This document shows, piece by piece, positions 5,695 through 54,030 of a DNA stretch of 64,000 nucleotides; within the stretch, counting starts at the first letter, position 1, and each line of letters begins with the position of its first letter. The translations under genes were made by a program, and so were the position numbers. Where the stretch lies: the NCBI GenBank assembly GCA_944380295.1, contig CALWHE010000001.1, forward strand, positions 1,172 through 65,171, written 5' to 3'. The stretch is from an uncultured Christensenellaceae bacterium. Lineage in GTDB: Bacteria > Bacillota > Clostridia > Christensenellales > UBA3700. The notes beneath the pieces were generated by a model that saw nothing but the letters and a program-made list of their open reading frames with translations, had not been told where the DNA came from and did not search any database.

Positions 5695-6732
5695 TTACTT
5701 TGCGCCGTGGATGAGTTCGGGCGCTTCCTTTATCATATATTCCGCTATCTGCACGGCGTTGCTTGCCGCGCCCTTGCGGATGTTGTCTGCCACGCACCAG
5801 ATGTTGCAGCCGCTCTCCACGGTGTCGTCCAGGCGCACTCTGCCCACGTAAACTTCGTCGTGACCGGTGGAGAGGATGGGCATGGGATAAACGTTGTGTG
5901 CGGTATCGTCCATGACCACAAGTCCTTTCTGACCCTTGAAGGCGTCGTATATGCCTTGCAGGGTGCAGGGCTTTTCAAACTCTACGTTGATGCTCTCGGA
6001 GTGGCTGTTGAGCACGGGCACGCGCACGGTGGTGGCGGTGACTTTTATCTTGTCGTCGCCCAGGATCTTTTTGGTTTCGTTGACCATTTTGATCTCCTCT
6101 TTGGTGTATCCGTTCTCCGTGAACACATCTATGTGCGGCAGGCAGTTATTGGCGATCTGGTAGGGGAATTTGACGGTTTTATACTCTTTTCCCGCCACAA
6201 ACGCCTTCAAGCCTTCCAGCAGGTCGTTATAGCCGGCAACGCCCGCGCCGGACACTGCCTGGTATGTGGAATAAACCACTCTTTTGATGCCGAACTTGTC
6301 GTAGAGGGGTTTGAGCGCCACCATCGCCTGAATGGTGGAGCAGTTGGGGTTGGCGATGATGCCGTTGTGCCAAGTTATGTCGCCGGGGTTGACCTCGGGG
6401 ACGACCAGGGGGACGTTTTTGTCCATACGCCACTGGGAGGAATTGTCTATCACCACGGCGCCGTGGGCGGCAAAGACGGGCGCAAAGCGCGCGCTTACGG
6501 AACCGCCTGCGGAGAAGAGAGCGATGTCGACGGGCTGTTTTTTGACGTTTTCTTCCGTCAGCTCTATGATGGTATGTTTTTTGCCCATGAAGTCCACCTG
6601 TTTGCCCGCGCTCTTGGCGGAGGCAAAGAGGTAATAGTTGTCTGCGGGCAAATTCTTTTCCGTGAGCACTTCCAAAAATTTGGAGCCGACCATGCCGGTT
6701 GCGCCTACGACGGCGATGTTGTATTTTTTCAT
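5695..6732 (-). CDS. asd: aspartate-semialdehyde dehydrogenase
   Basis: 345 aa. N-terminal VGATGMVG NAD(P) motif and active-site context NPNCSTI. SD AAAGGAG upstream. Confidence 0.92.
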   Translation of the reverse strand: MKKYNIAVVGATGMVGSKFLEVLTEKNLPADNYYLFASAKSAGKQVDFMGKKHTIIELTEENVKKQPVDIALFSAGGSVSARFAPVFAAHGAVVIDNSSQWRMDKNVPLVVPEVNPGDITWHNGIIANPNCSTIQAMVALKPLYDKFGIKRVVYSTYQAVSGAGVAGYNDLLEGLKAFVAGKEYKTVKFPYQIANNCLPHIDVFTENGYTKEEIKMVNETKKILGDDKIKVTATTVRVPVLNSHSESINVEFEKPCTLQGIYDAFKGQKGLVVMDDTAHNVYPMPILSTGHDEVYVGRVRLDDTVESGCNIWCVADNIRKGAASNAVQIAEYMIKEAPELIHGAK

Positions 6733-6842
6733 AAATATCTCCTTTTTGTCCGCCGCCTTGCGCGGCGGAACGGGTATGCTTTTGAGGTGCGGAGGGCTTA
6801 AAGCCGCGCCGCGGAGGCTGCCTTCTGCGCGGCGCGAGGCGT

Positions 6843-6869: not shown

Positions 6870-6887
6870 CGGTAAACTTTTTGCCGG

Positions 6888-7047
6888 CTTATAGTGCTCC
6901 ATCCGCAGATGACAGTTGCAACGTTATTGGCGTTGCACCCAGCTTTCACCTCGTCGGGACGGCGGTAAAAACTTCGGCGGCTTTGCCTTTTTGCGGGGGA
7001 TCCCGACCCCTTTTTCCGCATACTTTTCGCGGCCGCGCCTCTATAAG
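6888..7047 (-). promoter_or_regulatory. lysine riboswitch (L-box) aptamer in the asd-dapA-dapB leader
   Basis: Minus-strand read CUUAUAGAGGCGCG...AGUAUGC...GCCGAAG...GGUGAAAG...ACUGUCAUCUGCGGAUGGAGCACUAUAAG. P1 pairs CUUAUAG with CUAUAAG. The conserved L-box boxes are recalled from memory of RF00168 members. Confidence 0.8.
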
Positions 7048-7054
7048 TAATTCG

Positions 7055-9093: not shown

Positions 9094-9957
9094 ATGAAAG
9101 ATGTGATGACACGCGCGCTGCTCTTTGACGGGGCGGCGAGCATAACCGTTTGGAACATAACGCAGGCGGCGCAGCAGGGCGCGCGGCTGCACGGCATGAG
9201 TGACGACGCGGCGGAAGTTTACGGCAAACTTCTCTCCGTCACCGCCTATATGAGCGCCGGTTTGAAGGCGGATACGGACAAGCTCACCGTCATCATGGAA
9301 GGGGACGGCAAGCTGGGCAGGGCGGTGGCTTGCGGCGCGGCGGGCGCCAAAGTGCGCGGCTATGTGTCTGAACCTCTGGCGCGTCTGCGCGCGGGCGAAA
9401 CGCAGGCGGCAATGCTGGGCAGCGGCTTTATCAGCGTGATAAAGGACTTGGGCTTGCAGCAGCCTTACCGCGGCTGGGGAGAGATAGTCAAAGGCGACGT
9501 GACGGGCGATTTTGCCGGTTACTTCATGCTCTCGGAGCAAACGCCCACCGCGCTTTCACTGGCGTGCCGCTTTCAAAACGGCAGGTGCGCGGTGTGCGGC
9601 GGCGCGGCGGCGGCGCCTCTGCCCGGCTGCAAAGAAGAGCATCTGGTGGTGCTTGAAGACATCATGCGCAACTTCACCGATGCGGAAGCGGCGCTGGCGG
9701 GAGCGGAGCCGCGCGAGCTGATAGAAGAGCACTTCGGGCATTTTGCGCCCGCTTATCTGCCGGACGTATATCCCGCTTACGAATGCACTTGCAGCCGCGC
9801 GCGCAGTGCGGGCATGATCCGCGCGCTGGGCGCCAAGGAAGCGCGTTCCGTCCTTGCCGAAAACGGTCGAATAGAGGTAAAATGCGAGTTTTGCGGCAAA
9901 AAATACGTATTTAATGCACAAGATATCGATAAACTGTTTGCAGAGGAAAATAAATGA
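9094..9957 (+). CDS. hslO: Hsp33-family redox-regulated chaperone
   Basis: 287 aa. C-terminal zinc centre CTCS...CEFCGKKY (CXC...CXXC) is characteristic of Hsp33. Confidence 0.85.
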   Translation: MKDVMTRALLFDGAASITVWNITQAAQQGARLHGMSDDAAEVYGKLLSVTAYMSAGLKADTDKLTVIMEGDGKLGRAVACGAAGAKVRGYVSEPLARLRAGETQAAMLGSGFISVIKDLGLQQPYRGWGEIVKGDVTGDFAGYFMLSEQTPTALSLACRFQNGRCAVCGGAAAAPLPGCKEEHLVVLEDIMRNFTDAEAALAGAEPRELIEEHFGHFAPAYLPDVYPAYECTCSRARSAGMIRALGAKEARSVLAENGRIEVKCEFCGKKYVFNAQDIDKLFAEENK

Positions 9958-11675
9958 TAGAAATACCGCGCAGCTGCCTTTATTATCTGGAAGCCTGCCG
10001 TGAGGCGGAGCTGAAAGAAGATCATCCCACCGCCTTGCGCATGCTGGGGCTGGCGCTGCATTATGCGGATAATTCCGACGACGAGTTCGAGTGCATGGCG
10101 GAAAAGCTGCGCATTTTCGATCTGTTGGGCGCGGACGTGCCCGCCGTGTGCTACGAATCCATCGCGCGGCGCGCGGACGGGGACGACATGTATATGGCGC
10201 TTTTCAACAACGCCGTGGTGCATAAAAACGCGGAACAGGCGGCTTATTATCTCGACATTTTGGAATCGGATGACGAAGTTCCGCTCATCACCGCCGTGGA
10301 GCACGGCAAAGCGAAAGAGGACGAAGGCTTGGCGCGCGTGAACAAGCTGATAGCGGGGCTGGAACGCGAATACCGCATGTCGGACATCGGCTTTGCCGAC
10401 GCGGAAGAGGAATACGTGGGCAAGGTTTTGGAAAAAGCCGTATCCCTGCTCATCGCCTCGCACGGCAAGGAGATGAGCGGCGTGGAAGAGGCGCTGCAAC
10501 TGCGCACAGACAGCCCCAAACTGAAAGAGAAGATCAACGAAGTGCTGGCGCAATGCGCGGAGATAGCGGCGGACAGGGCGGATACGCGCGGCATATACGA
10601 GCGGCTTTTGCCCCGCGCCTCTTCCCAGCTCACCGTGATGTGCGCGGGGTGCATGTCGCAGGCGGTGCGGGAAGACGAACGGTTGCTGAGCGCATATGAA
10701 GAGGCGCTCTGCGCCGCGGTGGAGGGCAAACAGCTCACCGCGCGCCAGAAGTGCATTGCCGGCTTCACCTTTTTGGAGCGCGGCAGGGCGCAAAAGGCGC
10801 TGGACATACTGGAAGGGTGCGACGTGTCCCTGGCGGACATCTTTGCGCGCCGCGTTTATATCGCCGCGCTCTTTGCGCTGGGCGAGGAGGAAAAGCGCGC
10901 GCTCGACATGTTGGAAGACACCCTGCTTTTGGAAGAATACGAAGACAGGCTGGTTTGGGAGTTTTATCACCACGCGGGCAGGGAAGCGTGCCTGAAATTC
11001 GGCGACAACATATATTCGTCCGTGCCGCGCGCGGCAATGGAAGAGGCGGAGTCGCTCACGGGCGCGGAGCTTAAAGCTCTGGTGAGCAGCCCTTACGGCA
11101 GATATTTGGCGGAGAGCGTGGCGCACATGTCGCCCCCGGGCTTTTTGCAGCGCGACGTATACAGGCACATTTTTTGCATTTACACCGATTTTCACCCGCG
11201 CGCGGCGCTCAAACTGCTCTACGACCACGAGGTAGATCTGACGGTGAAACGCGCCGTTCTGCACCGCTTTTTATATTGCAACGACGTGTATGAAGTGAAA
11301 AAGGCGGTGTTCATGACCTCGCCCGACCGCAACATCACCGTGGAAGACGAGGGCTACGTTTACCGCAACGACGTCATCTTTGACGAAGAATTCGACGAGT
11401 GGCCCGACCGCGTGCGCGCCGCCGCCTGTTCCGCGGCGGTGGACTGCTGTTTTTATAACAATTATCGGGAAGGGGAGATCTTTGCCGCGATCAAACAGGT
11501 CTATGAAAAAACGCGCCATATGCGCGGCGTGGTCACTTTCAACACCGTTTACCGCGCCGTTGTGCTCACGCTTAATCCCGATATAAGAGATTTTCTCTGC
11601 ATCACCGGCATGGAGCGCTCGGAAATGCGCAAGATAGAGGCGGTGGCGAAAAAATTCGGGATAGAGATCAAGTGA
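9954..11675 (+). CDS. hypothetical protein, 573 aa, no recognisable family
   Basis: ATG overlaps the hslO stop (ATGA). Codon usage looks like neighbouring genes. Composition appears predominantly helical and Leu/Ala/Glu-rich. Confidence 0.6.
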   Translation: MIEIPRSCLYYLEACREAELKEDHPTALRMLGLALHYADNSDDEFECMAEKLRIFDLLGADVPAVCYESIARRADGDDMYMALFNNAVVHKNAEQAAYYLDILESDDEVPLITAVEHGKAKEDEGLARVNKLIAGLEREYRMSDIGFADAEEEYVGKVLEKAVSLLIASHGKEMSGVEEALQLRTDSPKLKEKINEVLAQCAEIAADRADTRGIYERLLPRASSQLTVMCAGCMSQAVREDERLLSAYEEALCAAVEGKQLTARQKCIAGFTFLERGRAQKALDILEGCDVSLADIFARRVYIAALFALGEEEKRALDMLEDTLLLEEYEDRLVWEFYHHAGREACLKFGDNIYSSVPRAAMEEAESLTGAELKALVSSPYGRYLAESVAHMSPPGFLQRDVYRHIFCIYTDFHPRAALKLLYDHEVDLTVKRAVLHRFLYCNDVYEVKKAVFMTSPDRNITVEDEGYVYRNDVIFDEEFDEWPDRVRAAACSAAVDCCFYNNYREGEIFAAIKQVYEKTRHMRGVVTFNTVYRAVVLTLNPDIRDFLCITGMERSEMRKIEAVAKKFGIEIK

Positions 11676-11676
11676 T

Positions 11677-11866
11677 GTCCTGCGCAAGGGCGCAATGAGC
11701 GATAAGCGAAGAAATGCGCCCTTGCTTCGGACGTGAAATTTTTGCGCAGATATAAGTGAGCGGTAAGCGAACATATCTTCTGCGCAAAAGTGAAATGTTT
11801 TTGCTTTATGAAGCAAAAACGTGAAATGTGCCCTCAAACCGCAAGCGACGAGAGGGCACGTGAAAT
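11677..11866 (-). repeat. core unit C1 (ATTTCAC dialect)
   Basis: GTGAAAT at 11733, 11790, 11821 and 11860 on the plus strand. h4-h3-h2-h1 in reverse. Confidence 0.9.
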
Positions 11867-12305
11867 GCACGACGATACAGCTCCGCGCTCGTCGTGCGTG
11901 GCGGCTGGGAGCGCGGGGCGCTCCATCCCTAATCAAGCCTTGAAGTAACTTGTTCGTCTATCCGGCTAATCTCTTCACAATGCTTACACAGCAAAATATA
12001 ATAAAGCGCGGGCAGCGTGACGCTGCACCCTTTATATGCTTCGCAGTAACGGAACCGTCGGTTATCGAGGCTCTTCGAACTAATATTTGTTGGGTATATA
12101 ACGATACTAACGGCATGACCATTCACACAATTATGCATTTGGAAATAAGGGTGCAGCGTCACGCTGCCCTGGCAGGCGCTGTTAAGGGTGCGCGGCTGTA
12201 TCGACTTTCTGTCGCTCTTACTATGTTTATAACATTTAATTTGATGTGCCCACAGCACCGCAACGTCCGCGATGCGCCGTGCTATGCACGGCAGTATGAG
12301 CGGGC

Positions 12306-12496
12306 ATTTCACGTGCTCTTTCGTCGCGGAGCGGTTTAAGAGCACATTTCACGTTTTTGCTTTGTAAAGCAAAAACATTTCACTTTTGCGCGGAAGTAAT
12401 GTTCGCTAGCCGCTCACATATATCCGCGCAAAAATTTCACATCCGGAGCAAGGGCGCATTTCTTCGCTTATCGCTCATTGCGCCCTTGCGCAGGAC
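12306..12496 (+). repeat. core unit C2 (ATTTCAC dialect)
   Basis: Four ATTTCAC linkers. h1 allele GTGCTCTT/AAGAGCAC. Confidence 0.9.
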
Positions 12497-12520
12497 ATAA
12501 AGGGGTGCAGCGTCACGCTG

Positions 12521-12608
12521 CCCGGGCAGGCGCTGTTAAGGGTGCGCGGGAGAGTGATGGATTTGCGTGCAGGTTTGGACGGCGGGGGCGCAGGCAATAC
12601 TCTTGCGG
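12521..12608 (+). repeat. module LH, 5' half only (tandem partial duplicate)
   Basis: Near-identical to 12643-12730. Confidence 0.85.
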
Positions 12609-12642: not shown

Positions 12643-12807
12643 GCCGGGCAGGCGCTATTAAGGGTGCGCGGGAGAGTGATGGATTTGCGTGCAGGTTTGG
12701 ACGGCAGGGGCGCAGGCAATACTCTTGCGGTATTGTCAAGCCCCCGCCGTTCAAAGATGTGCGTAAAGACGCACTCTCCCGCGTGCCCTTGATAGCGCCT
12801 GCCCGGC
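12643..12807 (+). repeat. module LH (165-nt long hairpin, 36-bp basal stem)
   Basis: GCCGGGCAGGCGCTATTAAGGGTGCGCGGGAGAGTG pairs with CACTCTCCCGCGTGCCCTTGATAGCGCCTGCCCGGC. All three non-Watson-Crick positions are T:G or G:T. Confidence 0.85.
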
Positions 12808-12833
12808 AAAAGAAAAAAACTTTTTCATTTCTC

Positions 12834-17450: not shown

Positions 17451-17515
17451 GCGAAAAACAAAAGGGATAGGGCGGATATGGTTTTATGCCATATCTGCCC
17501 TTTTGTTTTTCGCTT
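17449..17515 (+). repeat. module T (66-nt hairpin starting in the ruvC stop codon)
   Basis: AAGCGAAAAACAAAAGGG...CCCTTTTGTTTTTCGCTT. Confidence 0.9.
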
Positions 17516-18240: not shown

Positions 18241-18434
18241 ATTTCACGTGCCCTCTCGTCGCTTGCGGATTGAGGGCACATTTCACGTTTTTGACAACGA
18301 GTTGGCAAAAACATTTCACTTTTGCGCAGCAGATATACATTCGCTTACCGCTCATTTATATCTGCGCAAAAATTTCACGTCCGGAGCGGCGGCGGATCTG
18401 CTTGGAATAATTGTTATTCCGCCGCCGCGCAGGA
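18241..18434 (+). repeat. core unit C3 (ATTTCAC dialect)
   Basis: Four linkers. h4 allele GGCGGCGGA/TCCGCCGCC. Confidence 0.9.
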
Positions 18435-18440
18435 TATCAC

Positions 18441-18469
18441 TTGACATTCCCCCCGCTCTGTATTATCAT
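18441..18469 (+). promoter_or_regulatory. candidate ruvAB-queA promoter giving a leaderless or near-leaderless mRNA
   Basis: TTGACA, 17 nt, TATCAT. The ATG at 18477 lies 7 nt after the -10 and has no SD. Confidence 0.5.
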
Positions 18470-18476
18470 AATATAT

Positions 18477-21188: not shown

Positions 21189-21253
21189 GCGAAAGAGAAA
21201 AAGGATAAGGCGGGTCCCGTTTTCAACGGGATCTGCCTTTTCCTCTTTCGCTT
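21187..21253 (+). repeat. module T (covarying copy starting in the queA stop codon)
   Basis: AAGCGAAAGAGAAAAAGG...CCTTTTCCTCTTTCGCTT. Confidence 0.9.
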
Positions 21254-21862
21254 GCTGAAAGACAACCCCGGCATTGGAGATAGGCGCCGAGTGAAAGTGC
21301 CGTGCGATAAAGCATTTTAATGTTCTAACGATATCGGCGCACAGCACTTTGCGCCTACGTGTGAGGGGCAAACCCGACACGCTCCGCTGCGGTTTTCCCC
21401 TCGTTTTGCGGCGAGATATAGGAAAGCGTGCAAGCCTTAGCCGCAAAACTTCACCCCTTTCCGCCGCCGCGGGAGCGGCGCGCAAGGCAGTCGCCTTGCC
21501 CAAGGTGCGCTCACCGAAAAGCGCGGTTTTCGGTGGCGGGAAGTTGCACTTTTAGTTTGGGGTGCAGCGGCACGCTGCCGCTCCACAAGTTCCGCTCAAT
21601 CGGAAAATGCGCACGGCGCATTTTAGAGGTGTGCTCACCGAAAAGCGCGGTTTTCGGTGGCAGGATATTACAACATGTTTTTCAGTTTTTGGCAAGGGCG
21701 TTCTGTCCACTAAAGTGGACACTTCAAAAGGAGAGCAAAGGTATTGTCTGTTTATTAGATTTGTCCACTTTTGTGGACAGCTGTTTTTGTGGATAGCGGT
21801 ATATTCCAATAGCGCCGCAGGCAGCCGCCACGCACGACGAGCGCGGAGCTGTATCGTCGTGC

Positions 21863-22051
21863 ATTTCACGTGCCCTCTCGTCGCTTGCGGTTTGAGGGCA
21901 CATTTCACGTTTTTGCCTTGCAAGGCAAAAACATTTCACTTTTGCGCGGAAGTTATGCTCGCTGGGCGCTCACATATATCCGCGCAAAAATTTCACGTCC
22001 GTAGCGGCACGGCGCACTTTCATTTATAGATTTTGCCGTGCCGAGCAGGAC
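21863..22051 (+). repeat. core unit C4 (ATTTCAC dialect)
   Basis: Four linkers. h4 allele GGCACGGC/GCCGTGCC. Confidence 0.9.
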
Positions 22052-22196: not shown

Positions 22197-22389
22197 ATTT
22201 CACGTGCCCTCTCGTCGCTTTGCGGTTTGAGGGCACATTTCACGTTTTTGCCAATGTGTTGGCAAAAACATTTCACTTTTGCGCAGCAGTATACGTTCGC
22301 TTACCGCTCACTTGTATCTGCGCAAAAATTTCACGTCCGGAGCGGCACGGCACTCTCTCGCTTATAGATTTTGCCGTGCCGCGCAGGAC
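22197..22389 (+). repeat. core unit C5 (ATTTCAC dialect), representative copy
   Basis: Linkers at 22197, 22237, 22270 and 22328. Hairpins h1 22204-22236, h2 22244-22269, h3 22277-22327, h4 22335-22389. Confidence 0.9.
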
Positions 22390-22396
22390 ATTTTTC

Positions 22397-25199: not shown

Positions 25200-25389
25200 A
25201 TTTCACGTGCCCTCTCGTCGCTTGCGGTTTGAGGGCACATTTCACGTTTTTGCCTTGTGAGGCAAAAACATTTCACTTTTGCGCGGAAGTAATGTTCGCT
25301 AGCCGCTCACATATATCCGCGCAAAAATTTCACGTCCGGAGCCGCCGAACACACTTGCGCTTATTTGATTTTGTTCGGCGGCGCAGGAC
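25200..25389 (+). repeat. core unit C6 (ATTTCAC dialect)
   Basis: Four linkers. h4 allele CGCCGAACA/TGTTCGGCG. Confidence 0.9.
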
Positions 25390-30267: not shown

Positions 30268-30472
30268 GTCCTGCGCGGCACGGCAATGAGCGTAAGCGAA
30301 AGGATGCCGTGCCGCTCCGGACGCGATATATTTTGCCTTTGCAATCATTTACATAAGTCAAACACTCCTAACGGCAAAATGCGATATGTCGGCTTTGCCG
30401 ACGCGATATGTCCTGCGCGGCGGCGGAATAACATTTGCCCCATCGGATCCGCCGCCGCTCCGGACGCGATAT
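30268..30472 (-). repeat. core unit C11 (ATATCGC dialect)
   Basis: GCGATAT at 30323, 30381, 30403 and 30466 on the plus strand. Confidence 0.9.
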
Positions 30473-30569
30473 ATTTTGCCGTGCCAAACATTTAGAATAA
30501 GCGTAAAAGCACCAAACGGCAAAATGCGGCGGTATCTTGCGGCATTCTGCCGCAAATCAAAATCATATA

Positions 30570-30923: not shown

Positions 30924-31115
30924 ATTTCACGTGCCCTCTCGTCGCTTGCGGATTGAGGGCACATTTCACGTTTTTGCCTTGCTAGGCAAAAACATTTCAC
31001 TTTTCGGCAGAAAGAGTAGCGGCGCTTGTGCAACCGCTATATCTGCCGAAAAATTTCACGTCCGGAGCGGCGGCGGATTTGTTTGGAATATTGTTTTTCC
31101 GCCGCCGAGCAGGAC
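30924..31115 (+). repeat. core unit C7 (ATTTCAC dialect)
   Basis: Four linkers. h3 allele TTTTCGGCAGA/TCTGCCGAAAA. Confidence 0.9.
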
Positions 31116-38267: not shown

Positions 38268-38317
38268 TATATTAACGTGGGGACAGGACCGCGTAGTTTA
38301 TGTTAAGAGGTTCGATT

Positions 38318-41300
38318 ATGAGGGAAAGCGTAAAGTTGCATTCGTCTTTCAAATTCGTGGTGGCGATGATTTTGGTGGCCGCGCTTTGCGTCGCGGCTTT
38401 TTCTCCGCTCTTCGCGCCCGCGTCCGCCGCGGCGGAAGCCTGGCAGGGCACGGCGACGTATCAGCTCGGCAACGGCTACACACAGGATACAGTCATTCCC
38501 GGCGCGTATAAAGTGGTATGCGACGGCGTTACATACGATTCCGGCGTGCCCGAAGTCTTGGGCGAGATAGCGCCGAATGCGGGCTATAAATTCGTCGGCT
38601 TCCAAGATAACGGCGGCACTTTGGTGGCTGAGTTCGACGGCGACGATACCTTTACCGTGACGGAAGCGTTCATCAATGCGACCGGCACTTATACTCTGAT
38701 CCCCGCCTTCGAAGTGATAGAATACAAAATAACTTACGATCTGAACGTGCCGAGCGGCGTGACGGCGCAGCCCTCCAACCCCAACACGGCAAAAACTTAC
38801 ACGGTCGAGGATAACCCCGTCGCTTTGGCGGTGCCCACGCTGGCGGGCTGGGAATTCGGCGGCTGGCAGCTGCCGAACGACGACATCGTGCAGCAGATAG
38901 ACTCTTCCCTGATAGCTGCTCTGACAGCGGACGGCGAGCTGCCCGGTAACGAGTTGGTTCTTACGGCGCAGTGGGCGGAACAGACCTTCACGCTCACCGT
39001 GATGATAGATCAGACCAAAATAGAATACGAAGCCATCCCCGGCGTGTCGATCGGTAACTATATCGGCGCTCTCACTCCCGAAGACAAGGGCGACTCCGAA
39101 CAATTTTTGGGCTGGGAGATGGACGGCAAGATCATCGATGTGATGACCACGCTCATGCCTGAGAAAAACACCACGGTCAACGCCAAATTCGGCATTCCCT
39201 CAGTTCACGTGAGCTTTATCGTTAAAAAAGCCACGGTGGAAGACGCAAACAAGTTCGATACAAAAAATGATATATTTATCGAAGTCACGGAAGGAACATA
39301 TACTCCCGAAGCGCTTGCCGCGCAAGCGGGTAGCAAGCTTAACTATACCGGATTCACCCGCACGTCGGTCACCTGGGAAGACGGCACCGATGCAGCCAAA
39401 GAGGTGAGCGGTTCGTGCTCCGTAGTGTGCATTTATGAGCGCGACCAATGCAATCTGCTCATCCATTATCGTTACGACCTCAACGGCGACGGCATTCCCG
39501 ACGACATAGACGGCGACGGCGAGGCGGACATCGCGGCGTTCGATGTGCGTGACAGCGGCGTTTACGGCGACAGATACGAAAAGTCTTCTCCGCAGATAAA
39601 GGGCATGCAGGCGCTCACGGGCACGGTGGCGGGCATATATGACAGAGATTTCACGGAAGTGACCGTGCTTTACACCACCGCTCCGGACAAGCGCAAGGCG
39701 GAACTGGGCGGCATAGGCGGCACGGTCACCAATGACGAAGGCGGCTTGATAGACGCCGCCGTCAGCGTCACCTGGGATCCGGCGGCTGCGGGCGCGCACA
39801 GTGCCATGGCGGCAGGCACGGGCAACGAAGCTTACGGCGTGCTCTCCGTGGAGATAGCGGAAGCGGAAGGCGCGGTGTTCGGCGCCCGCGGCGTTTACAC
39901 TCTCACCGTGGACCTGGGCGAGAGCATGGCGGACAAGACTTATTATAATGTATATAAAATAAATGACGACGGCACATACGCGCCCATCTCCGTCAGATAC
40001 AGCGGCAGCACTCTGGTGCTCACGGTAGACGCCGCCGGCGATTATCTGGTCACCGGCACGCCCGTGCAGGACAACACGCTGCTTTGGGTGCTCATCGCGC
40101 TACTCATCCTGCTGCTCATCCTGCTGATAGTGCTGTTGCTCGTCCTGTTGCTGCTGAGCAAAAAGACGGTCAGCTTTGAAGTGAACGGCGGCGAAGAAGT
40201 GGATAAGATAAAAGCCAAGAAGGGCAACGTGATAGAACTGCCTCTGCCCGAACGCGAAGGTTACGAATTTGCCGGCTGGTATCTGGACGAAGAGTGCACG
40301 ATCCCCGCGCCGCTCGAACCGGGAGAGGCGGACAAAGACGAAGCGCCCGCCGAGGACAAAAAGGGCAAAAAGGATAAAAAAGCCAAAAAGGACAAGAAAG
40401 GCAAAAAGGCGGCGCCCGTAGAAGCGCCCGCGGAAGAAGCCCCTGCGCAAGAAGCCCCTGCGGAAGAAACGCCGGCAGAGGAAGCGCCCGCGGCAGAAGC
40501 CCCGGCGGACGAGGCTCCGGCAGAGGAAACCCCTGCCGAAGAAGCTCCCGTGGAAGCGCCTGCGGAAGAAGCCCCGGCAGAAGCGCCTGCGGAAGAAGCC
40601 CCGGCAGAAGCGCCTGCGGAAGAAGCCCCGGCGGAAGCGCCTGCGGAAGAAGCCCCGGCGGAAGCGCCTGCGGAAGAAGCCCCGGCGGAAGCGCCTGCGG
40701 AAGAAGCCTCGGCAGACGAGGCTCCCGCAGAGGAAGCGCCCGCGCAAGAGCAAAGCGAAGAGATCAGGATATATGACGAGCCGGACGGCAAAGACGTCAC
40801 CGACGAACAAAAAGGAGGAGGCACCACCGATACCATGAGTTCCAAACGCGCCAAAAAGGCAAAAAACAATAAGCCGGCGGCTCCCGCCGCGGCAGAGGAA
40901 CAAGCCCCTGCGGAAACTCCCGCCGAGGAAGTCCCTGCCCAAGCGCCCGCGGAAGAAACTCCCGCAGAGGACGCCCCCGCGGCAGACGCGCCCGTGGAAG
41001 AAACTCCCGCCGAGGACGCCCCCGCGGCAGACGCTCCCGTCGAGGAAGTCCCCGCGGAAGAAGCGCCGGCGGAAGTCCCCGCGGAAGAAGTTCCCGCAGC
41101 TGACGCCCCCGCAGAAGCTCCTGCGGAAGACGCTCCCGCAGCGCCCGCTGAATTTGTGTTGCCGGAGGTCATGCGCTTCAAGGTGACGGGCAGCGTAAAA
41201 CTTTACGCCAAGTGGAAAGAGATAGTGCCGGAAGAGGCGCACGCGGTCAACTTTGTCGCCTGCGGCGTTATCCAGAGCACGGTCAAAACGATGGGCAAAG

Positions 41301-42949
41301 AGCCTGTTGCCGTGCCCGCGGCGCCCGCGTTGCCCGGATACGCCTTTGCCCGCTGGATCTTCAAGGACAAAAAGGGAGAAGAGGTCGCCTTTACGGAAAG
41401 CACGCTGGCGGACAAATATCTGCTGGAAGATCTCAACGTCATCGCCGATTACATCAAGGTGGTGCCCAAGATCAGATTTTATGCCTGCGGCGTGTTGCAG
41501 CGCACGCTGGAAGTGCAGGGCATCTGCGCCGTGCAGCTTCCCGAAGCGCCCGCGCTGGAAGAATACCGCTTCTGCAACTGGTATACCCTGCAAAACGGCG
41601 CGCAGGTGCCGTTCACGGGCAGAGAGACCGCGCAGAGTTATCTGACGGAAGATCTGAACGTCTATGCCGAATATATCAAGCCGGTGCCCGTGGCGGAAGC
41701 GCCCGAACCTCACCTCATCACCTTTATGGCGGACGGCGAGGTGGTGGCTACCATAGAAACCGCCGGCAGGGACGCGCTCGATCTGCCCGCCGCGCCCGTC
41801 AAGGAAGGCTTTGTCTTCCGCGGCTGGTTCACGGACGAAGAAAAGCACAACGAGGTGGTGGAAGAGAGCAGTTATGTGGATAAGGATCTTGAAGAGGATC
41901 TGATCCTTTACGCCTTCTATGAAGAAGAGAAGGAGCCGGAAAAGGAAGAAGATTTTGCCGCGGCTGCCATCTTGCCGGAAGAAGACGATGAAGAGCCGGA
42001 GGAAGAGCCGGAAGAAGAGGACGAAACCCCCGAAGTGGAAGAGAAAGAAGACGACGAAGAAGAGCCGGAAGAAGAGCTCGAACCGGGCGCGCCCAGGATG
42101 ATCACGGCGGCGGACGCCATCAAGCGCCGCACGTCCACCATGCGCGGACGTCTGAGATACGGTTCGGACGTGAACAAAGCCATATACGAAGAGCTGGTCA
42201 ACCACCTGTTGCAGTTCAAGAACGTGTCCCGTTCGCTCACCAACAGGGCGGACAACTTCAAGAGCAAGGGCGCGCTGCTTGCCAAGATCACGCTCACGGG
42301 CAAAACGCTCAAACTCTATCTGCCTCTGGACGCTGAGCAATACGATTACGACAAGTATCATCAGCTCATCACGGAAAAGAAGGGCTATGAAGAAGTGCCT
42401 TTCACCATCAAGGTCAAATCCAACCGCGGCTTGAAATATGCCAAGGAACTGATAGACGAAGCCATGGCGCAGGCGGGCGTGGAACGCAAGAAGAAGGCGG
42501 GCGAGAAGAAGAGCTTCAAGGAGCTGATCCTGCTGCAAAAGGGCAGCCTGCTCATCAAGAACAAAAAGACGGAAAAGCTGCGCTCGCGCGTAGACTCGCA
42601 GGACGCCAACGCCCAGCTCACGGACGCGGAGGCGCAGGAGCTGATCAGGATCAAATACGTGCCCGTGTCCGACGAGGTGAAAAAGACGGCTTTCGTGGGC
42701 TTGGACAAGATAGAAGATCTTTACAACGACTGCGACATGGTCAACATCAAAACGCTGCGCAAGCGCGGGCTGGTCAAAGACGAGCATAACCGCGTGAAGA
42801 TAATCGGCGGCGGCACGCTGACCAAATCGCTCAAAGTTTATGCGGACGAATATTCGCTCACGGCGGTCAAGATGATCGTGCTTTTGGGCGGCAAAGTGGT
42901 CAAAAACGTGGAAGAAAGCGTGGAAAAACCGGAAGAGGGCAAGCAATAA
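38318..42949 (+). CDS. about 1543-aa repeat protein: signal peptide, Listeria-Bacteroides (Flg_new-type) repeats, central hydrophobic helix, further Flg_new-type repeats, Pro/Ala/Glu tandem repeats, acidic tract, uL15-like C-terminal segment
   Basis: Start moved to ATG 38318 behind AAGAGG. Repeat signatures such as GYKFVGF, LAGWEFGGW, REGYEFAGWY, LPGYAFARW and KEGFVFRGWF. Terminator at 42971-42996. Confidence 0.75.
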   Translation: MRESVKLHSSFKFVVAMILVAALCVAAFSPLFAPASAAAEAWQGTATYQLGNGYTQDTVIPGAYKVVCDGVTYDSGVPEVLGEIAPNAGYKFVGFQDNGGTLVAEFDGDDTFTVTEAFINATGTYTLIPAFEVIEYKITYDLNVPSGVTAQPSNPNTAKTYTVEDNPVALAVPTLAGWEFGGWQLPNDDIVQQIDSSLIAALTADGELPGNELVLTAQWAEQTFTLTVMIDQTKIEYEAIPGVSIGNYIGALTPEDKGDSEQFLGWEMDGKIIDVMTTLMPEKNTTVNAKFGIPSVHVSFIVKKATVEDANKFDTKNDIFIEVTEGTYTPEALAAQAGSKLNYTGFTRTSVTWEDGTDAAKEVSGSCSVVCIYERDQCNLLIHYRYDLNGDGIPDDIDGDGEADIAAFDVRDSGVYGDRYEKSSPQIKGMQALTGTVAGIYDRDFTEVTVLYTTAPDKRKAELGGIGGTVTNDEGGLIDAAVSVTWDPAAAGAHSAMAAGTGNEAYGVLSVEIAEAEGAVFGARGVYTLTVDLGESMADKTYYNVYKINDDGTYAPISVRYSGSTLVLTVDAAGDYLVTGTPVQDNTLLWVLIALLILLLILLIVLLLVLLLLSKKTVSFEVNGGEEVDKIKAKKGNVIELPLPEREGYEFAGWYLDEECTIPAPLEPGEADKDEAPAEDKKGKKDKKAKKDKKGKKAAPVEAPAEEAPAQEAPAEETPAEEAPAAEAPADEAPAEETPAEEAPVEAPAEEAPAEAPAEEAPAEAPAEEAPAEAPAEEAPAEAPAEEAPAEAPAEEASADEAPAEEAPAQEQSEEIRIYDEPDGKDVTDEQKGGGTTDTMSSKRAKKAKNNKPAAPAAAEEQAPAETPAEEVPAQAPAEETPAEDAPAADAPVEETPAEDAPAADAPVEEVPAEEAPAEVPAEEVPAADAPAEAPAEDAPAAPAEFVLPEVMRFKVTGSVKLYAKWKEIVPEEAHAVNFVACGVIQSTVKTMGKEPVAVPAAPALPGYAFARWIFKDKKGEEVAFTESTLADKYLLEDLNVIADYIKVVPKIRFYACGVLQRTLEVQGICAVQLPEAPALEEYRFCNWYTLQNGAQVPFTGRETAQSYLTEDLNVYAEYIKPVPVAEAPEPHLITFMADGEVVATIETAGRDALDLPAAPVKEGFVFRGWFTDEEKHNEVVEESSYVDKDLEEDLILYAFYEEEKEPEKEEDFAAAAILPEEDDEEPEEEPEEEDETPEVEEKEDDEEEPEEELEPGAPRMITAADAIKRRTSTMRGRLRYGSDVNKAIYEELVNHLLQFKNVSRSLTNRADNFKSKGALLAKITLTGKTLKLYLPLDAEQYDYDKYHQLITEKKGYEEVPFTIKVKSNRGLKYAKELIDEAMAQAGVERKKKAGEKKSFKELILLQKGSLLIKNKKTEKLRSRVDSQDANAQLTDAEAQELIRIKYVPVSDEVKKTAFVGLDKIEDLYNDCDMVNIKTLRKRGLVKDEHNRVKIIGGGTLTKSLKVYADEYSLTAVKMIVLLGGKVVKNVEESVEKPEEGKQ
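40562..40712 (+). repeat. intragenic perfect tandem repeat, 27-nt unit x5 plus a partial unit (AEEAPAEAP)
   Basis: GCGGAAGAAGCCCCGGC(A/G)GAAGCGCCT repeated head-to-tail. Units differ only at one synonymous position. Confidence 0.9.
40952..41041 (+). repeat. intragenic tandem repeat, 45-nt unit x2 (EETPAEDAPAADAPV)
   Basis: Two adjacent 45-nt units differ at 3 synonymous positions. Confidence 0.85.
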
Positions 42950-50986: not shown

Positions 50987-51053
50987 AAGCGAAAAACAAA
51001 AGGGATAGGGCGGATATGGTTTTATGCCATATCTGCCCTTTCGTTTTTCGCTT
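50987..51053 (+). repeat. module T (copy after the ABC gene; its TAA is an in-frame second stop)
   Basis: Nearly identical to the I2 copy. Confidence 0.9.
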
Positions 51054-51589: not shown

Positions 51590-51831
51590 ATTTCACGTGC
51601 CCCTCTGTGAGCGCGCAAGTTCTTCACATTGCGGTCACATATGATCGGGGTGCAGCGTCACGCTGCTTTGAGGGCACATTTCACGTTTTTGCCAATGTGT
51701 TGGCAAAAACATTTCACTTTTCGGCGTTTGTCATGTTCGCTTTTCGCTCACATTGGCAACGCCGAAAAATTTCACGTCCTGAACAAGGGCGCACACTTTC
51801 GTTTATCGCTCATTGCGCCCTTGTGCAGGAC
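51590..51831 (+). repeat. core unit C8 (ATTTCAC dialect) with 64-nt h1 loop
   Basis: The h1 arms at 51597-51605 and 51670-51677 enclose other modules. h3 allele TTTTCGGCGTT/AACGCCGAAAA. Confidence 0.9.
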
Positions 51832-51836
51832 ATTTC

Positions 51837-51863
51837 TTGACTTTTTCCCGCATTGCATATAAT
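51837..51863 (+). promoter_or_regulatory. candidate promoter of the M16 peptidase gene, near-leaderless
   Basis: TTGACT, 15 nt (short), TATAAT. The ATG at 51873 has no SD. Confidence 0.35.
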
Positions 51864-51872
51864 ATATCTGTT

Positions 51873-53395: not shown

Positions 53396-53509
53396 TCGCA
53401 AAAGTGAAATGTTTTGCCTGCAAGGCAAAACGTGAAATGTGCTCTTAAACCGCTCCGCGACGAAAGAGCACGTGAAATGCACGACGATACAGCTCCGCGC
53501 TCGTCGTGC
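53396..53509 (-). repeat. truncated core unit C9 (ATTTCAC dialect)
   Basis: GTGAAAT at 53404, 53432 and 53472. h4 and half of h3 are missing. Confidence 0.85.
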
Positions 53510-53771
53510 GTGGCGGTGCTGTGGGCACATTAAATAAAGTGTTATAAAACATAGCAAGAGCGACAGAAAGACGATACAGCTGCACGCTCGTCGTGCGTGG
53601 CGGGCAGCGTGCCACTGCACCCCCAATCGTGCCTTGAAGTCACTTTTCCGTTTGTTCGGCTTACCTCTTCGCAATGCTTACACGATAAAGTGTAATAAAG
53701 CGCCTCAGGCAGCCTTTACATTTTGCCGTTCGGCACAGTGCGGTTACTCAATACGTTTGTTACGGCAAAAT

Positions 53772-53977
53772 ATATCGCGTCCGGAGCCGCCGAACATTTT
53801 TATCGCTATTCGCTTTTGTTCGGTGGCGCAGGACATATCGCGTCGGCGCAGCCGACATATCGCTTTTGCGCAGCAGATATAAGTTTGCTAGCCGCTCACA
53901 TATATCTGCGCAAAAATATCGCGTCCGGAGCGGCACGGCACACTTTCGCTTATCGCCATTGCCGTGCCGCGCAGGAC
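53772..53977 (+). repeat. core unit C10 (ATATCGC dialect)
   Basis: ATATCGC at 53772, 53835, 53857 and 53916. Order is h4, GTCGGC-GCA-GCCGAC, h3, h4. Confidence 0.9.
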
Positions 53978-54000
53978 ATAAAATATTATTTATTATATAC

Positions 54001-54030
54001 TTGTATTTTCCCGCACGTATGTGTTATAAT
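54001..54030 (+). promoter_or_regulatory. candidate ftsK promoter
   Basis: TTGTAT, 18 nt, TG-n-TATAAT. Confidence 0.45.

Follow-up and report, generated by a model that had tools for sequence, protein, structure and literature searches.

How can a row of hairpins change its sequence from copy to copy and still remain paired, and which strand, if any, is being kept folded? The question is raised by a 64,000-nt stretch of DNA from an uncultured Christensenellaceae bacterium (contig CALWHE010000001.1; the whole of this stretch is called the window below), in which two hairpin arrays, C1 and C2, face each other as an inverted pair at 11677-12496. An initial annotation of the window had pointed to compensated differences between the stems of such arrays, and had read them as the outcome of selection or templated repair acting on a folded single strand, either RNA or single-stranded DNA (ssDNA). 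We lean, with modest confidence, towards the view that C1 and C2 are copies of a dispersed repeat derived from the Gut-1 RNA motif (RF01706), that the copies exchange whole hairpin cassettes with each other, and that the element is maintained as a folded single strand, most probably RNA.

The spacer that holds 11677-12496 is 1,188 bp long and is bounded by the stop codon of a gene for a 573-aa protein and by the infC-rpmI-rplT operon. Read in the ATTTCAC sense, the order of the element is h0-ATTTCAC-h1-ATTTCAC-h2-ATTTCAC-h3-ATTTCAC-h4, i.e., a repeat of ~190-230 bases made of four or five hairpins with one invariant 7-base linker between them. As the annotation had it, C1 (minus) and C2 (plus) face each other, with 439 nt between their outermost linkers (11860-11866 and 12306-12312), and a repeat finder places the inverted arms at 11675-11842 and 12331-12498 (168 nt, 92% complementary). 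The reported identity of the two h4 hairpins over about 50 nt is borne out, as they differ only at positions 1 and 6 and their last 50 nt are identical; so are the two compensated pairs in h1 (GTGCCCTC/GAGGGCAC vs. GTGCTCTT/AAGAGCAC) and the single one in h3 (GCGCAGA/TCTGCGC vs. GCGCGGA/TCCGCGC). The h4 of C1 begins 2 nt past the TGA stop (11673-11675) of the 573-aa gene. In an RNA fold of C2 five separate hairpins are predicted, with single-stranded linkers (-106 kcal/mol, z = -6.6).

The pair is part of a larger family, as nine cores of the same module order are present in the window (11.7k(-), 12.3k, 18.2k, 21.9k, 22.2k, 25.2k, 30.9k, 51.6k and a truncated one at 53.4k(-)). ATTTCAC occurs 42 times (8.35 expected), and the pattern of the h4 frame eight times (0.01 expected). 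Pairing was counted in the four outer stems of 16 full cores, i.e., eight from the window, seven from Ca. Caccalectryoclostridium excrementigallinarum (DVNJ01) and one metagenome copy (alignment A2). In these, 93.1% of stem cells pair and both sides have changed in 19 of 46 pairs (77 doubly changed cells); none of 500 shuffles equalled the pairing or double-change values, and sliding the partner by 1-3 columns lowers the doubly changed pairs to 3-7. That pairing is kept while the sequence changes, far beyond chance, was thus correctly perceived. Uncompensated stem changes do exist, amounting to ~2% of cells outside an internal loop of h4; a broken stem is seen, e.g., in the chimeric h1 of locus L013, which takes its 5' arm from one allele and its 3' arm from another. 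Nucleotide diversity (pi) is 0.20 in stems vs. 0.35 in loops, i.e., about half, while the stems remain paired.

All four h3 variants listed in the annotation (GCGCAGA, GCGCGGA, CGGCAGA and CGGCGTT) were found, as were the four h4 inner stems AAGGGCGCA, GGCGGCGGA, GGCACGGCA and CGCCGAACA, each fully complementary to its partner arm; the description of the latter as wholly unrelated has to be given up, given that GGCACGGCA and GGCGGCGGA differ at only 3 of 9 positions. Neither are the h4 flanks strictly fixed. The 5' flank may be GGAGC, GTAGC, GAAGC, TGCGC, TGTGC or TGAAC, which against GCGCA forms an asymmetric internal loop of three positions in 13 of the 16 cores. The compensated differences, moreover, are not many independent events, as the simplest reading of the description would have it, and come down to a handful of discrete cassette alleles moved as whole units: about four for h1 (GTGCCCTC, GTGCCCTA, GTGCTCTT and GCGCTCTT), four for h3 and five for the inner stem of h4. 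The same alleles are found in the window and in DVNJ01, combined differently, and the diversity among copies within one genome is about that between genomes. Most of the compensations are not independent mutations. Cores of the two genomes are 80-90% identical and alignable coding DNA 67-71%; with hairpins better conserved than coding DNA, either a constraint on folding or continual templated correction must act.

The movement of cassettes is visible among near-identical strains. An L20 protein identical to that of the window in every residue is encoded on contigs of many other samples; ten of these assemblies were compared, which gives 11 spacer versions including the window itself, and although the flanking DNA is 97-99.95% identical to the window, the spacer ranges from 509 to 1304 bp. 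Wherever the 573-aa gene is retained (nine strains), an h4 hairpin stands 2 nt past its stop codon, and its inner stem is AAGGGCGCA or CGCCGAACA according to strain. The window, L095 and L100 continue with GTGAAAT-linked arrays, and the rest with arrays of a sister family (seen in the window and in L093-L099), in which ATATCGC (GCGATAT on the other strand) replaces ATTTCAC at every linker while h3 and h4 cassettes are re-used. The sister family also has hairpins of its own, i.e., a small GTCGGC hairpin and a ATTTTGCCG...CGGCAAAAT hairpin, and one position of its arrays holds GGCGGCGGA, CACCGAACA or GGCACGGCA, depending on the strain. The ruvC-ruvA spacer is likewise variable, and in L093 it carries a hybrid ATTTCAC/ATATCGC array, in which the linker switches at a shared h3 cassette. 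Each main arrangement is seen in at least two independent samples.

The most telling comparison is that of the window with L095: 12,354 bases align without an indel, both repeat-rich spacers included, and 6 of them differ. Five of these cluster at the apex of C1 h2 (11805-11812), a pair change from T-A to C-G among them; the C1 h2 of L095 is identical to a paralogous h2 of the window at 21909-21932 (GTTTTTGCCTTGCAAGGCAAAAAC, from the core at 21863..22051). The patch is one templated event, most simply a short-patch gene conversion from the paralogue. Other changes took place within the palindromes: at the h2 apex two assemblies have CGAG and another two its reverse complement, CTCG, which amounts to a flip, and the h4 outer stem has been perfected to GTCCTGCGC/GCGCAGGAC in four strains. 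Templated repair, as one of the two processes originally proposed, is therefore upheld, chiefly as copying between paralogues, whereas repair within the folded strand does not hold as the chief route.

Where does such an element come from? The Gut-1 motif was found in human-gut sequences and considered to be confidently an RNA in a paper that assigns no function to it (Weinberg et al. 2010, PMC2864571). Searches of the literature for Gut-1 and for the linker words gave nothing past that paper, and Gut-1 is absent from a 2026 preprint on intergenic features. The Gut-1 consensus reads UGAAAU-hairpin-GUGAAAU-hairpin-GUGAAAU-hairpin-GUGAAAU, and as GUGAAAU is ATTTCAC on the opposite strand, the cores share the Gut-1 architecture. 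An Rfam scan of the window at the gathering threshold returned a lysine riboswitch only; extending it to an E-value of 0.1 added five cores that match Gut-1 and nothing else. In the cmscan alignment all four linkers and the stem bases are placed, with insertions of 14-38 nt in every loop. Gut-1 and the cores are both consecutive hairpins with the linker (G)UGAAAU (four or five linkers in each of the nine cores), both come from gut Clostridia, and both have a GUUUU(U)GC...GCAAAA(A)C hairpin with flanking linkers, which is h2 in the window.

The differences are equally clear. Gut-1 hairpins are short (9-18 nt, stems of 5-8 bp, loops of 3-5 nt such as UUCG), whereas those of the window measure 24-56 nt and have long, partly conserved loops (4-30 nt), which carry a conserved TTCGCTTATCGCTCA motif, the conserved loop being UUCGCUUAUCGCUCA; loops of the UUCG/CUUG type are retained only in h2 of the DVNJ01 copies. 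Gut-1 occurs as stand-alone loci, the window form in at least nine copies per 64 kb inside a REP/BIME-like mosaic of other repeats, and only the latter has a sister family with the linker ATATCGC. The cores are an enlarged and amplified relative of Gut-1 that falls outside formal membership.

A search with h2 and its linkers, in one genome per species, recovered at least 91 DNA stretches, spread over many metagenome-assembled genomes (MAGs) of Oscillospirales from ruminant, chicken and human gut; the hosts are Oscillospiraceae, Acutalibacteraceae and Eubacteriales MAGs. Most matching genomes harbor a small form, i.e., a row of 13-18-nt hairpins with loops of UUCG, GAAA or similar and the same 7-mer in between, the left part of which matches Gut-1 at 52-75 bits and thus above the cut-off of 50 bits. 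According to an alignment of 38 loci (A1; L016 4140-4440 and 37 others), the native unit is ~290 nt long, and the Rfam model covers only its left part, about a third. It consists of a covarying 5' hairpin, four GUGAAAU-linked hairpins and a segment GGGCAAAUUUC, followed by three or four AUUUCAC-linked hairpins, the last being the homologue of h2, and by a variable 3' domain and, usually, an intrinsic terminator. Several of its hairpins covary over species (UA in 26 and CG in 11 loci, GC in 21 and AU in 14; CG in 23 and GC in 9 for the 5' hairpin). In L075 the array lies amid same-strand tRNA genes, so that both linker senses must be in one transcript. Linkage to tRNA genes was considered as a general rule of the small form and dropped, being only occasional; the loci have no conserved neighbour gene and are flanked by genes for metallo-beta-lactamase-fold, MFS, GH43, oxidoreductase and esterase proteins.

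Several genomes have multiple small-form loci. An independent amplification is seen in SIG652 (L005, L027, L036, L062 and L080), in whose terminal hairpin the outer stem GCATAA/TTATGC is constant and the inner one is CGC/GCG or GGGC/GCCC, a constant-outer, variable-inner design that mirrors h4. Another, at L076 449-842, comprises three tandem small-form copies with a period of 181 bp. The small form also has a 5' segment, GAAAUUUGCCC, with complementarity to the central GGGCAAAUUUC; pairing of the two would compete with the first local hairpin, so that a conformational switch in the ~290-nt unit is possible as judged from the sequence. The large form was recovered from the species of the window, from DVNJ01 and from one metagenome contig (the sole one from the metagenome scan), with no match in viral contigs, plasmids or phages.

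The explanation that we favor would run as follows. C1 and C2 are two copies of a dispersed intergenic repeat, the unit of which is a hairpin preceded by ATTTCAC, and the family would be a lineage-specific Gut-1 derivative with enlarged hairpins, amplified to nine cores and two sister arrays in 64 kb. Each hairpin position is occupied by one of a few old, internally complementary cassette alleles, and homologous recombination or short-patch gene conversion, for which the identical linkers and clamps may serve as homology, would transfer whole cassettes or hairpin tops between copies, so that one step is enough to set two copies apart by "compensated" pairs. Loop flips and outer-palindrome perfecting, as DNA events mediated by the stems, occur as well. 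Recombination accounts for the differences between copies and not for why old alleles stay hairpins or why the element persists beyond the divergence of coding sequences, for which selection on the folded strand would be the natural answer; the alternative to selection on a function of the element is selection at the level of the element by a hairpin-recognising enzyme. The long-term retention of hairpins would then mean that the element works as a folded single strand, most probably RNA, with a role as a structured spacer or as a 3'-end or insulator module between transcription units.

RNA is favored as the folded strand by the Gut-1 homology, because of the tetraloops in the small form and in h2 of DVNJ01, and because h4 has kept its asymmetric internal loop, where correction would have left a perfect palindrome. 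The homologous small form appears as a transcribed, terminator-bounded array with UUCG/GNRA loops, which makes RNA the most probable state of the large form by homology, and an h4 hairpin 2 nt past a stop codon is expected to be on an mRNA. The position of the arrays, directly past stop codons or a terminator module (Module T, see below) and before promoters, favors the role of a structured spacer, which may protect 3' ends and/or insulate transcription units in the manner proposed for repetitive extragenic palindromic (REP) sequences and bacterial interspersed mosaic elements (BIMEs). Mispairs in the ATTTCAC sense are more often G:T than A:C (9:2 in the h4 inner stems and 22:8 over all inter-linker hairpins, the counts being non-independent). 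This asymmetry was tried as a means to orient the folded strand and set aside as suggestive only, being drawn from such counts and confounded by mutation bias.

Several points weigh against this explanation. The five cores that match Gut-1 do so at 31.6-35.4 bits (E-values of 0.0035-0.032), i.e., below the gathering cut-off, and as the linkers supply much of the score, the homology rests on the architecture and one shared hairpin; the long loops with the TTCGCTTATCGCTCA motif have no counterpart in Gut-1. The excess of G:T could be due to strand-biased (leading-strand) deamination and not to tolerance of wobble pairs. Strand and transcription are, for most copies, predictions, and the orientation of cores relative to flanking genes is mixed, i.e., mostly the same in the window and mostly opposite in DVNJ01, by rough calls of open reading frames (ORFs). 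Several cores occupy the interval from a Module T terminator to the next promoter, a stretch that may be little transcribed. Finally, the sequences compared come from metagenome assembly, which can thread repeats of 50-200 nt wrongly, and the h2 variant of L095 comes from a single assembly.

Many of the same facts could be read without RNA, and this is the competitor to which we give a minor, although by no means negligible, probability. The family would then be a purely DNA-level palindromic repeat similar to REP, BIME or REPIN elements, its hairpin units being recognised as ssDNA by a trans-acting HUH/Y1 enzyme (RAYT- or IS200/IS605-type) encoded elsewhere; only foldable copies would propagate, intrastrand template switching would keep the palindromes, and RNA would be incidental. 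It is in keeping with such an origin that the family consists of many copies, all of them intergenic, mosaic and hypervariable among strains, that loops flip and outer palindromes are perfected, that other modules are inserted in hairpin loops, that copies lie in mixed orientation to genes and between terminators and promoters, and that a constant short motif beside each hairpin recalls the GTAG of REP. However, the 37 ORFs of the window include no transposase or integrase, the array runs head-to-tail and does not alternate as in BIMEs, and no target-site duplications or empty sites were identified. The internal loop of h4 persists uncorrected in 13 of the 16 cores, and the small relatives are conserved at low copy in many species, with tetraloops of the RNA type, terminators and a tRNA-operon context, while REPs are species-specific.

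REP/BIME elements and the REPINs of Proteobacteria are multi-copy extragenic palindromes arranged in mosaics, often just past stop codons, the stems of which keep pairing while they change; both folding as ssDNA and protection of mRNA 3' ends have been proposed for them. The arrays of the window resemble them in being many short, imperfect extragenic palindromes. They differ in that the units are head-to-tail with ATTTCAC or ATATCGC at the foot, neither GTAG nor alternating, in having four or five different hairpins in a fixed order, in the absence of a RAYT gene among the ORFs of the window, and in their Clostridia hosts and relatives conserved over species. The BOX elements of Streptococcus pneumoniae and the neisserial intergenic mosaic elements are modular intergenic repeats with ordered sub-modules, strong predicted folding and a variable number of modules. 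The window arrays are modular, ordered and strongly folding too, without sequence similarity to either, and their modules are individually exchangeable hairpin cassettes with an invariant linker.

Template switching and short-patch gene conversion can alter several nucleotides of a stem at once with perfect compensation, and can also invert loops. Both signatures are seen here. Template-switch and quasi-palindrome mutations have reportedly been treated by Ripley, by Lovett, and by Monttinen and Loytynoja (PNAS, 2022). These are mutational mechanisms and not families of elements, and the best-documented donor in the present case is a paralogue and not the other arm. In integron attC sites structure is conserved over sequence, with a variable palindromic center between conserved flanks, as is also found in the hairpins of the window; they were rejected as a class for these arrays since the flanking 7-mers are direct repeats and not inverted R''/R', GTGAAAT does not fit GTTRRRY, no ORFs lie between the hairpins, and no integrase is among the 37 ORFs of the window. 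A miniature inverted-repeat transposable element (MITE) or foldback transposon was rejected as well (single cores lack terminal inverted repeats, C1/C2 is confined to some strains, and neither empty sites nor target-site duplications were seen), as was a CRISPR array (the repeat has 7 nt, against 23-47 nt in CRISPR, and the "spacers" are conserved hairpins common to arrays, not unique ones). Rho-independent terminators do not describe the cores, for only the A+T-rich h2 was flagged and h1, h3 and h4 have no U tract; Module T does fit.

More speculative, and in our estimation improbable, is the idea that Gut-1-type arrays are modular self-pairing RNAs, in which complementary linkers (GUGAAAU/AUUUCAC and GCGAUAU/AUAUCGC) pair between opposed arrays. 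Such pairing may take place in cis in the ~290-nt native locus, where a GUGAAAU array is in every case joined to an AUUUCAC array, and in trans among the dispersed copies of this genome. RNAalifold does predict the long-range GUGAAAU/AUUUCAC pairing, and since the columns are invariant, covariation neither supports nor refutes it. If it were true, it would imply ladders of four-way junctions or multimeric RNA assemblies with the hairpins as exchangeable "beads", and the concerted linker switch of the sister family, along with the invariance of linkers across species, would amount to covariation of whole arrays.

The compensated stems might also be taken at face value, i.e., as classical RNA covariation that evolved in place through independent compensatory substitutions, which we regard as quite unlikely. 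The strong pair statistics and the covariation of the small form over species agree with it, and in h4 hairpins of the AAGGGCGCA allele G-C, G.T and A-T are all seen at one position, a stepwise series which indicates that compensation in place, or recombination within loops, contributes too. The differences are nevertheless clustered in multi-nucleotide blocks and belong to discrete alleles common to both genomes; many are transversion swaps (GC to CG, AT to TA) for which no wobble intermediate is possible; near-identical strains have different alleles at the same site; of the six differences found in 12.35 kb, five are confined to a single 8-nt patch with a matching paralogue; and diversity within a genome equals that between genomes.

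Nor does the inverted arrangement of C1 and C2, striking as it is, appear to be what matters. That the pair is itself the functional unit, whether as a 168-bp foldback (long double-stranded RNA or a DNA cruciform) or as the terminal inverted repeats of a composite foldback transposon, is in our judgment very unlikely, in spite of the length and complementarity of the arms and of the same topology in small Gut-1 loci (a GUGAAAU array, then an AUUUCAC array). The foldback is present in 3 of the 11 spacer versions (window, L095 and L100), the others holding different arrays in that spacer, the left copy of L100 has other alleles, and the seven other cores of the window are solitary. Judging from these comparisons, C1/C2 is incidental and is not kept across strains as a functional pair. 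That the pattern is an artefact, whether of chance palindromes or of repeats assembled into chimeras, is scarcely credible. Metagenome assembly probably underlies the window and most of the loci compared, and a run of N lies inside the L098 array, but motif counts are far above shuffles, the same modules occur in independent samples and in another species, and the window and L095 agree at 12,348 of 12,354 sites over both repeat-rich spacers.

Table 1 Positions in the window of C1, C2, the other cores, the sister-family arrays and Module T (cores and hairpins in the ATTTCAC sense)
Feature	Position	Strand	Remarks
C1, whole	11677-11897	minus	inverted copy of C2
C1 h4	11677..11732	minus	GTCC clamp, internal loop, 9-bp inner stem AAGGGCGCA/TGCGCCCTT, 20-nt loop
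C1 h3	11740-11789	minus	
C1 h2	11797-11820	minus	
C1 h1	11828-11859	minus	
C1 h0, type 1	11867-11897	minus	GCACGACGA...TCGTCGTGC
C1 linkers	11733, 11790, 11821, 11860	minus	ATTTCAC; GTGAAAT on + strand
C2, whole	12265-12496	plus	inverted copy of C1
C2 h0, type 2	12265-12305	plus	GTCCGC...GCGGGC, inner GCCGTGC/GCACGGC
C2 h1	12313-12345	plus	
C2 h2	12353-12376	plus	
C2 h3	12384-12433	plus	
C2 h4	12441-12496	plus	inner stem and loop same as C1 h4
C2 linkers	12306, 12346, 12377, 12434	plus	ATTTCAC
Gut-1 sub-threshold match in C1	11731-11871	plus	34.2 bits
Gut-1 sub-threshold match in C2	12301-12442	minus	35.4 bits
Core	18241..18435	plus	h4 allele GGCGGCGGA; TTGACA-17-TATTAT 7 nt later, upstream of ruvA
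Core	21863..22051	plus	h4 allele GGCACGGCG; h2 = GTTTTTGCCTTGCAAGGCAAAAAC
Core	22197..22389	plus	h4 allele GGCACGGCA
Core	25200..25389	plus	h4 allele CGCCGAACA; h3 identical to C2 h3
Core	30924..31115	plus	h3 allele CGGCAGA; h4 allele GGCGGCGGA
Core	51590..51831	plus	h3 allele CGGCGTT; 49-nt h1-loop insertion with GGGTGCAGCGTCACGCTGC module; then TTGACT-17-TATAAT
Truncated core	53396..53509	minus	h0 type 1, h1 allele B, short h2, broken h3
Sister-family array (ATATCGC)	30268..30523	minus	h4 cassettes GGCGGCGGA, GGCACGGCA; intrinsic terminator at end
Sister-family array (ATATCGC)	53720..53977	plus	h4 (CGCCGAACA), small GTCGGC hairpin, h3 (GCGCAG), h4 (GGCACGGCA)
Module T	17451-17513		after stop of ruvC
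Module T	~50989-51052		after stop of ABC/FtsX gene
Module T	~21190-21255		after stop of queA

The cores of the window (Table 1) are interspersed with housekeeping genes (Hsp33, IF3/L35/L20, RuvCAB, RecJ and FtsK flank them), and the 37 ORFs include DapB, Hsp33, IF3, L20, RuvC, RuvA, QueA, RecJ, RelA/SpoT, PNPase, FtsK and RNase Y; no tRNA genes were found in the window. Module T is a repeated bidirectional intrinsic terminator with a gap of 31-32 nt between its arms. Its covariation had been claimed along with that of the cores; the module is indeed there (at 17456, 50994 and 21195), with an A.C mismatch in the GAGAAAAAGG/CCTTTTCCTC version, so that the pairing is not complete in each. Its alleles vary by strain at the same site, and the outer stem of a chimera in L094 is unpaired. 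Promoter-like sites follow h4 at 18443-18471 (TTGACA, 7 nt past h4, upstream of ruvA), 51837-51865 (TTGACT, 5 nt past h4, at 51.8k) and ~54000-54030 (TTGTAT, ~22 nt past h4, upstream of ftsK), the hexamers being followed after 17 nt by TATTAT or TATAAT. The copies at 22390 and 51832 have their next 20 nt in common, from which the promoter module seems to be part of the mosaic as well.

The 439 nt between C1 and C2 contain an unrelated MITE-like module (12010-12169) with perfect inverted ends of 23 nt (GGGCAGCGTGACGCTGCACCC) flanking 114 nt. Its hairpin module GGGTGCAGCGTCACGCTGCCC recurs in the h1 loop of the core at 51590 and, in other strains, in h3 loops (L093/L094/L096 spacer), and this placement inside hairpin loops suggests an element that targets them. 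On the far side of C2 there is an 87-nt direct repeat (12522-12608 and 12644-12730, 98% identical) with an inverted partner at 12772-12808; its copy number ranges from 1 to 3 among strains. The 573-aa protein (9954-11675, plus strand), the gene for which lies upstream of the array, is conserved and without a match in Pfam; the end of its reading frame, stop codon included, overlaps ATCACTTGA, a sequence found again past h4 at 18436. Within the cores, the 3' strand of type-2 h0 (ATGAGCGG, e.g., 12293-12302) is complementary to the loop motifs CCGCTCA (h3) and CGCTCAT (h4), the DVNJ01 counterparts being ATGAGCAA, TTGCTCG and TGCTCAT. Covariation of h0 with the loops across genomes was considered and discarded, as both h0 alleles occur in the species of the window and do not track the loops within a core; the interaction is unproven. 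Elsewhere in the window, the lysine riboswitch (RF00168, 85.4 bits) lies at 6884-7051 on the minus strand, and the ORF on its left (5707-6801) is on the plus strand. A 1549-aa ORF (38300-42949, plus strand) joins Listeria-Bacteroides repeat domains to a C-terminal stretch that matches ribosomal protein L15 (PF00828) and is probably a run-on over two genes.

Gut-1 has remained an orphan with a one-sentence description since 2010. The native RNA appears to be larger, ~290 nt with two opposed hairpin arrays, and its architecture has undergone repeated amplification; in a chicken-gut lineage of Clostridia it has become an enlarged, cassette-like intergenic repeat that varies even between strains that are ~98% identical. 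The case also calls for caution in RNA discovery within repeat families, as the statistics of covariation are strongly positive although the compensated differences come from the copying of paralogues. Finally, the hypervariability of these spacers beside housekeeping genes could serve for the typing of strains, and it could modulate the neighboring genes (infC-rpmI-rplT, ruvAB and ftsK).

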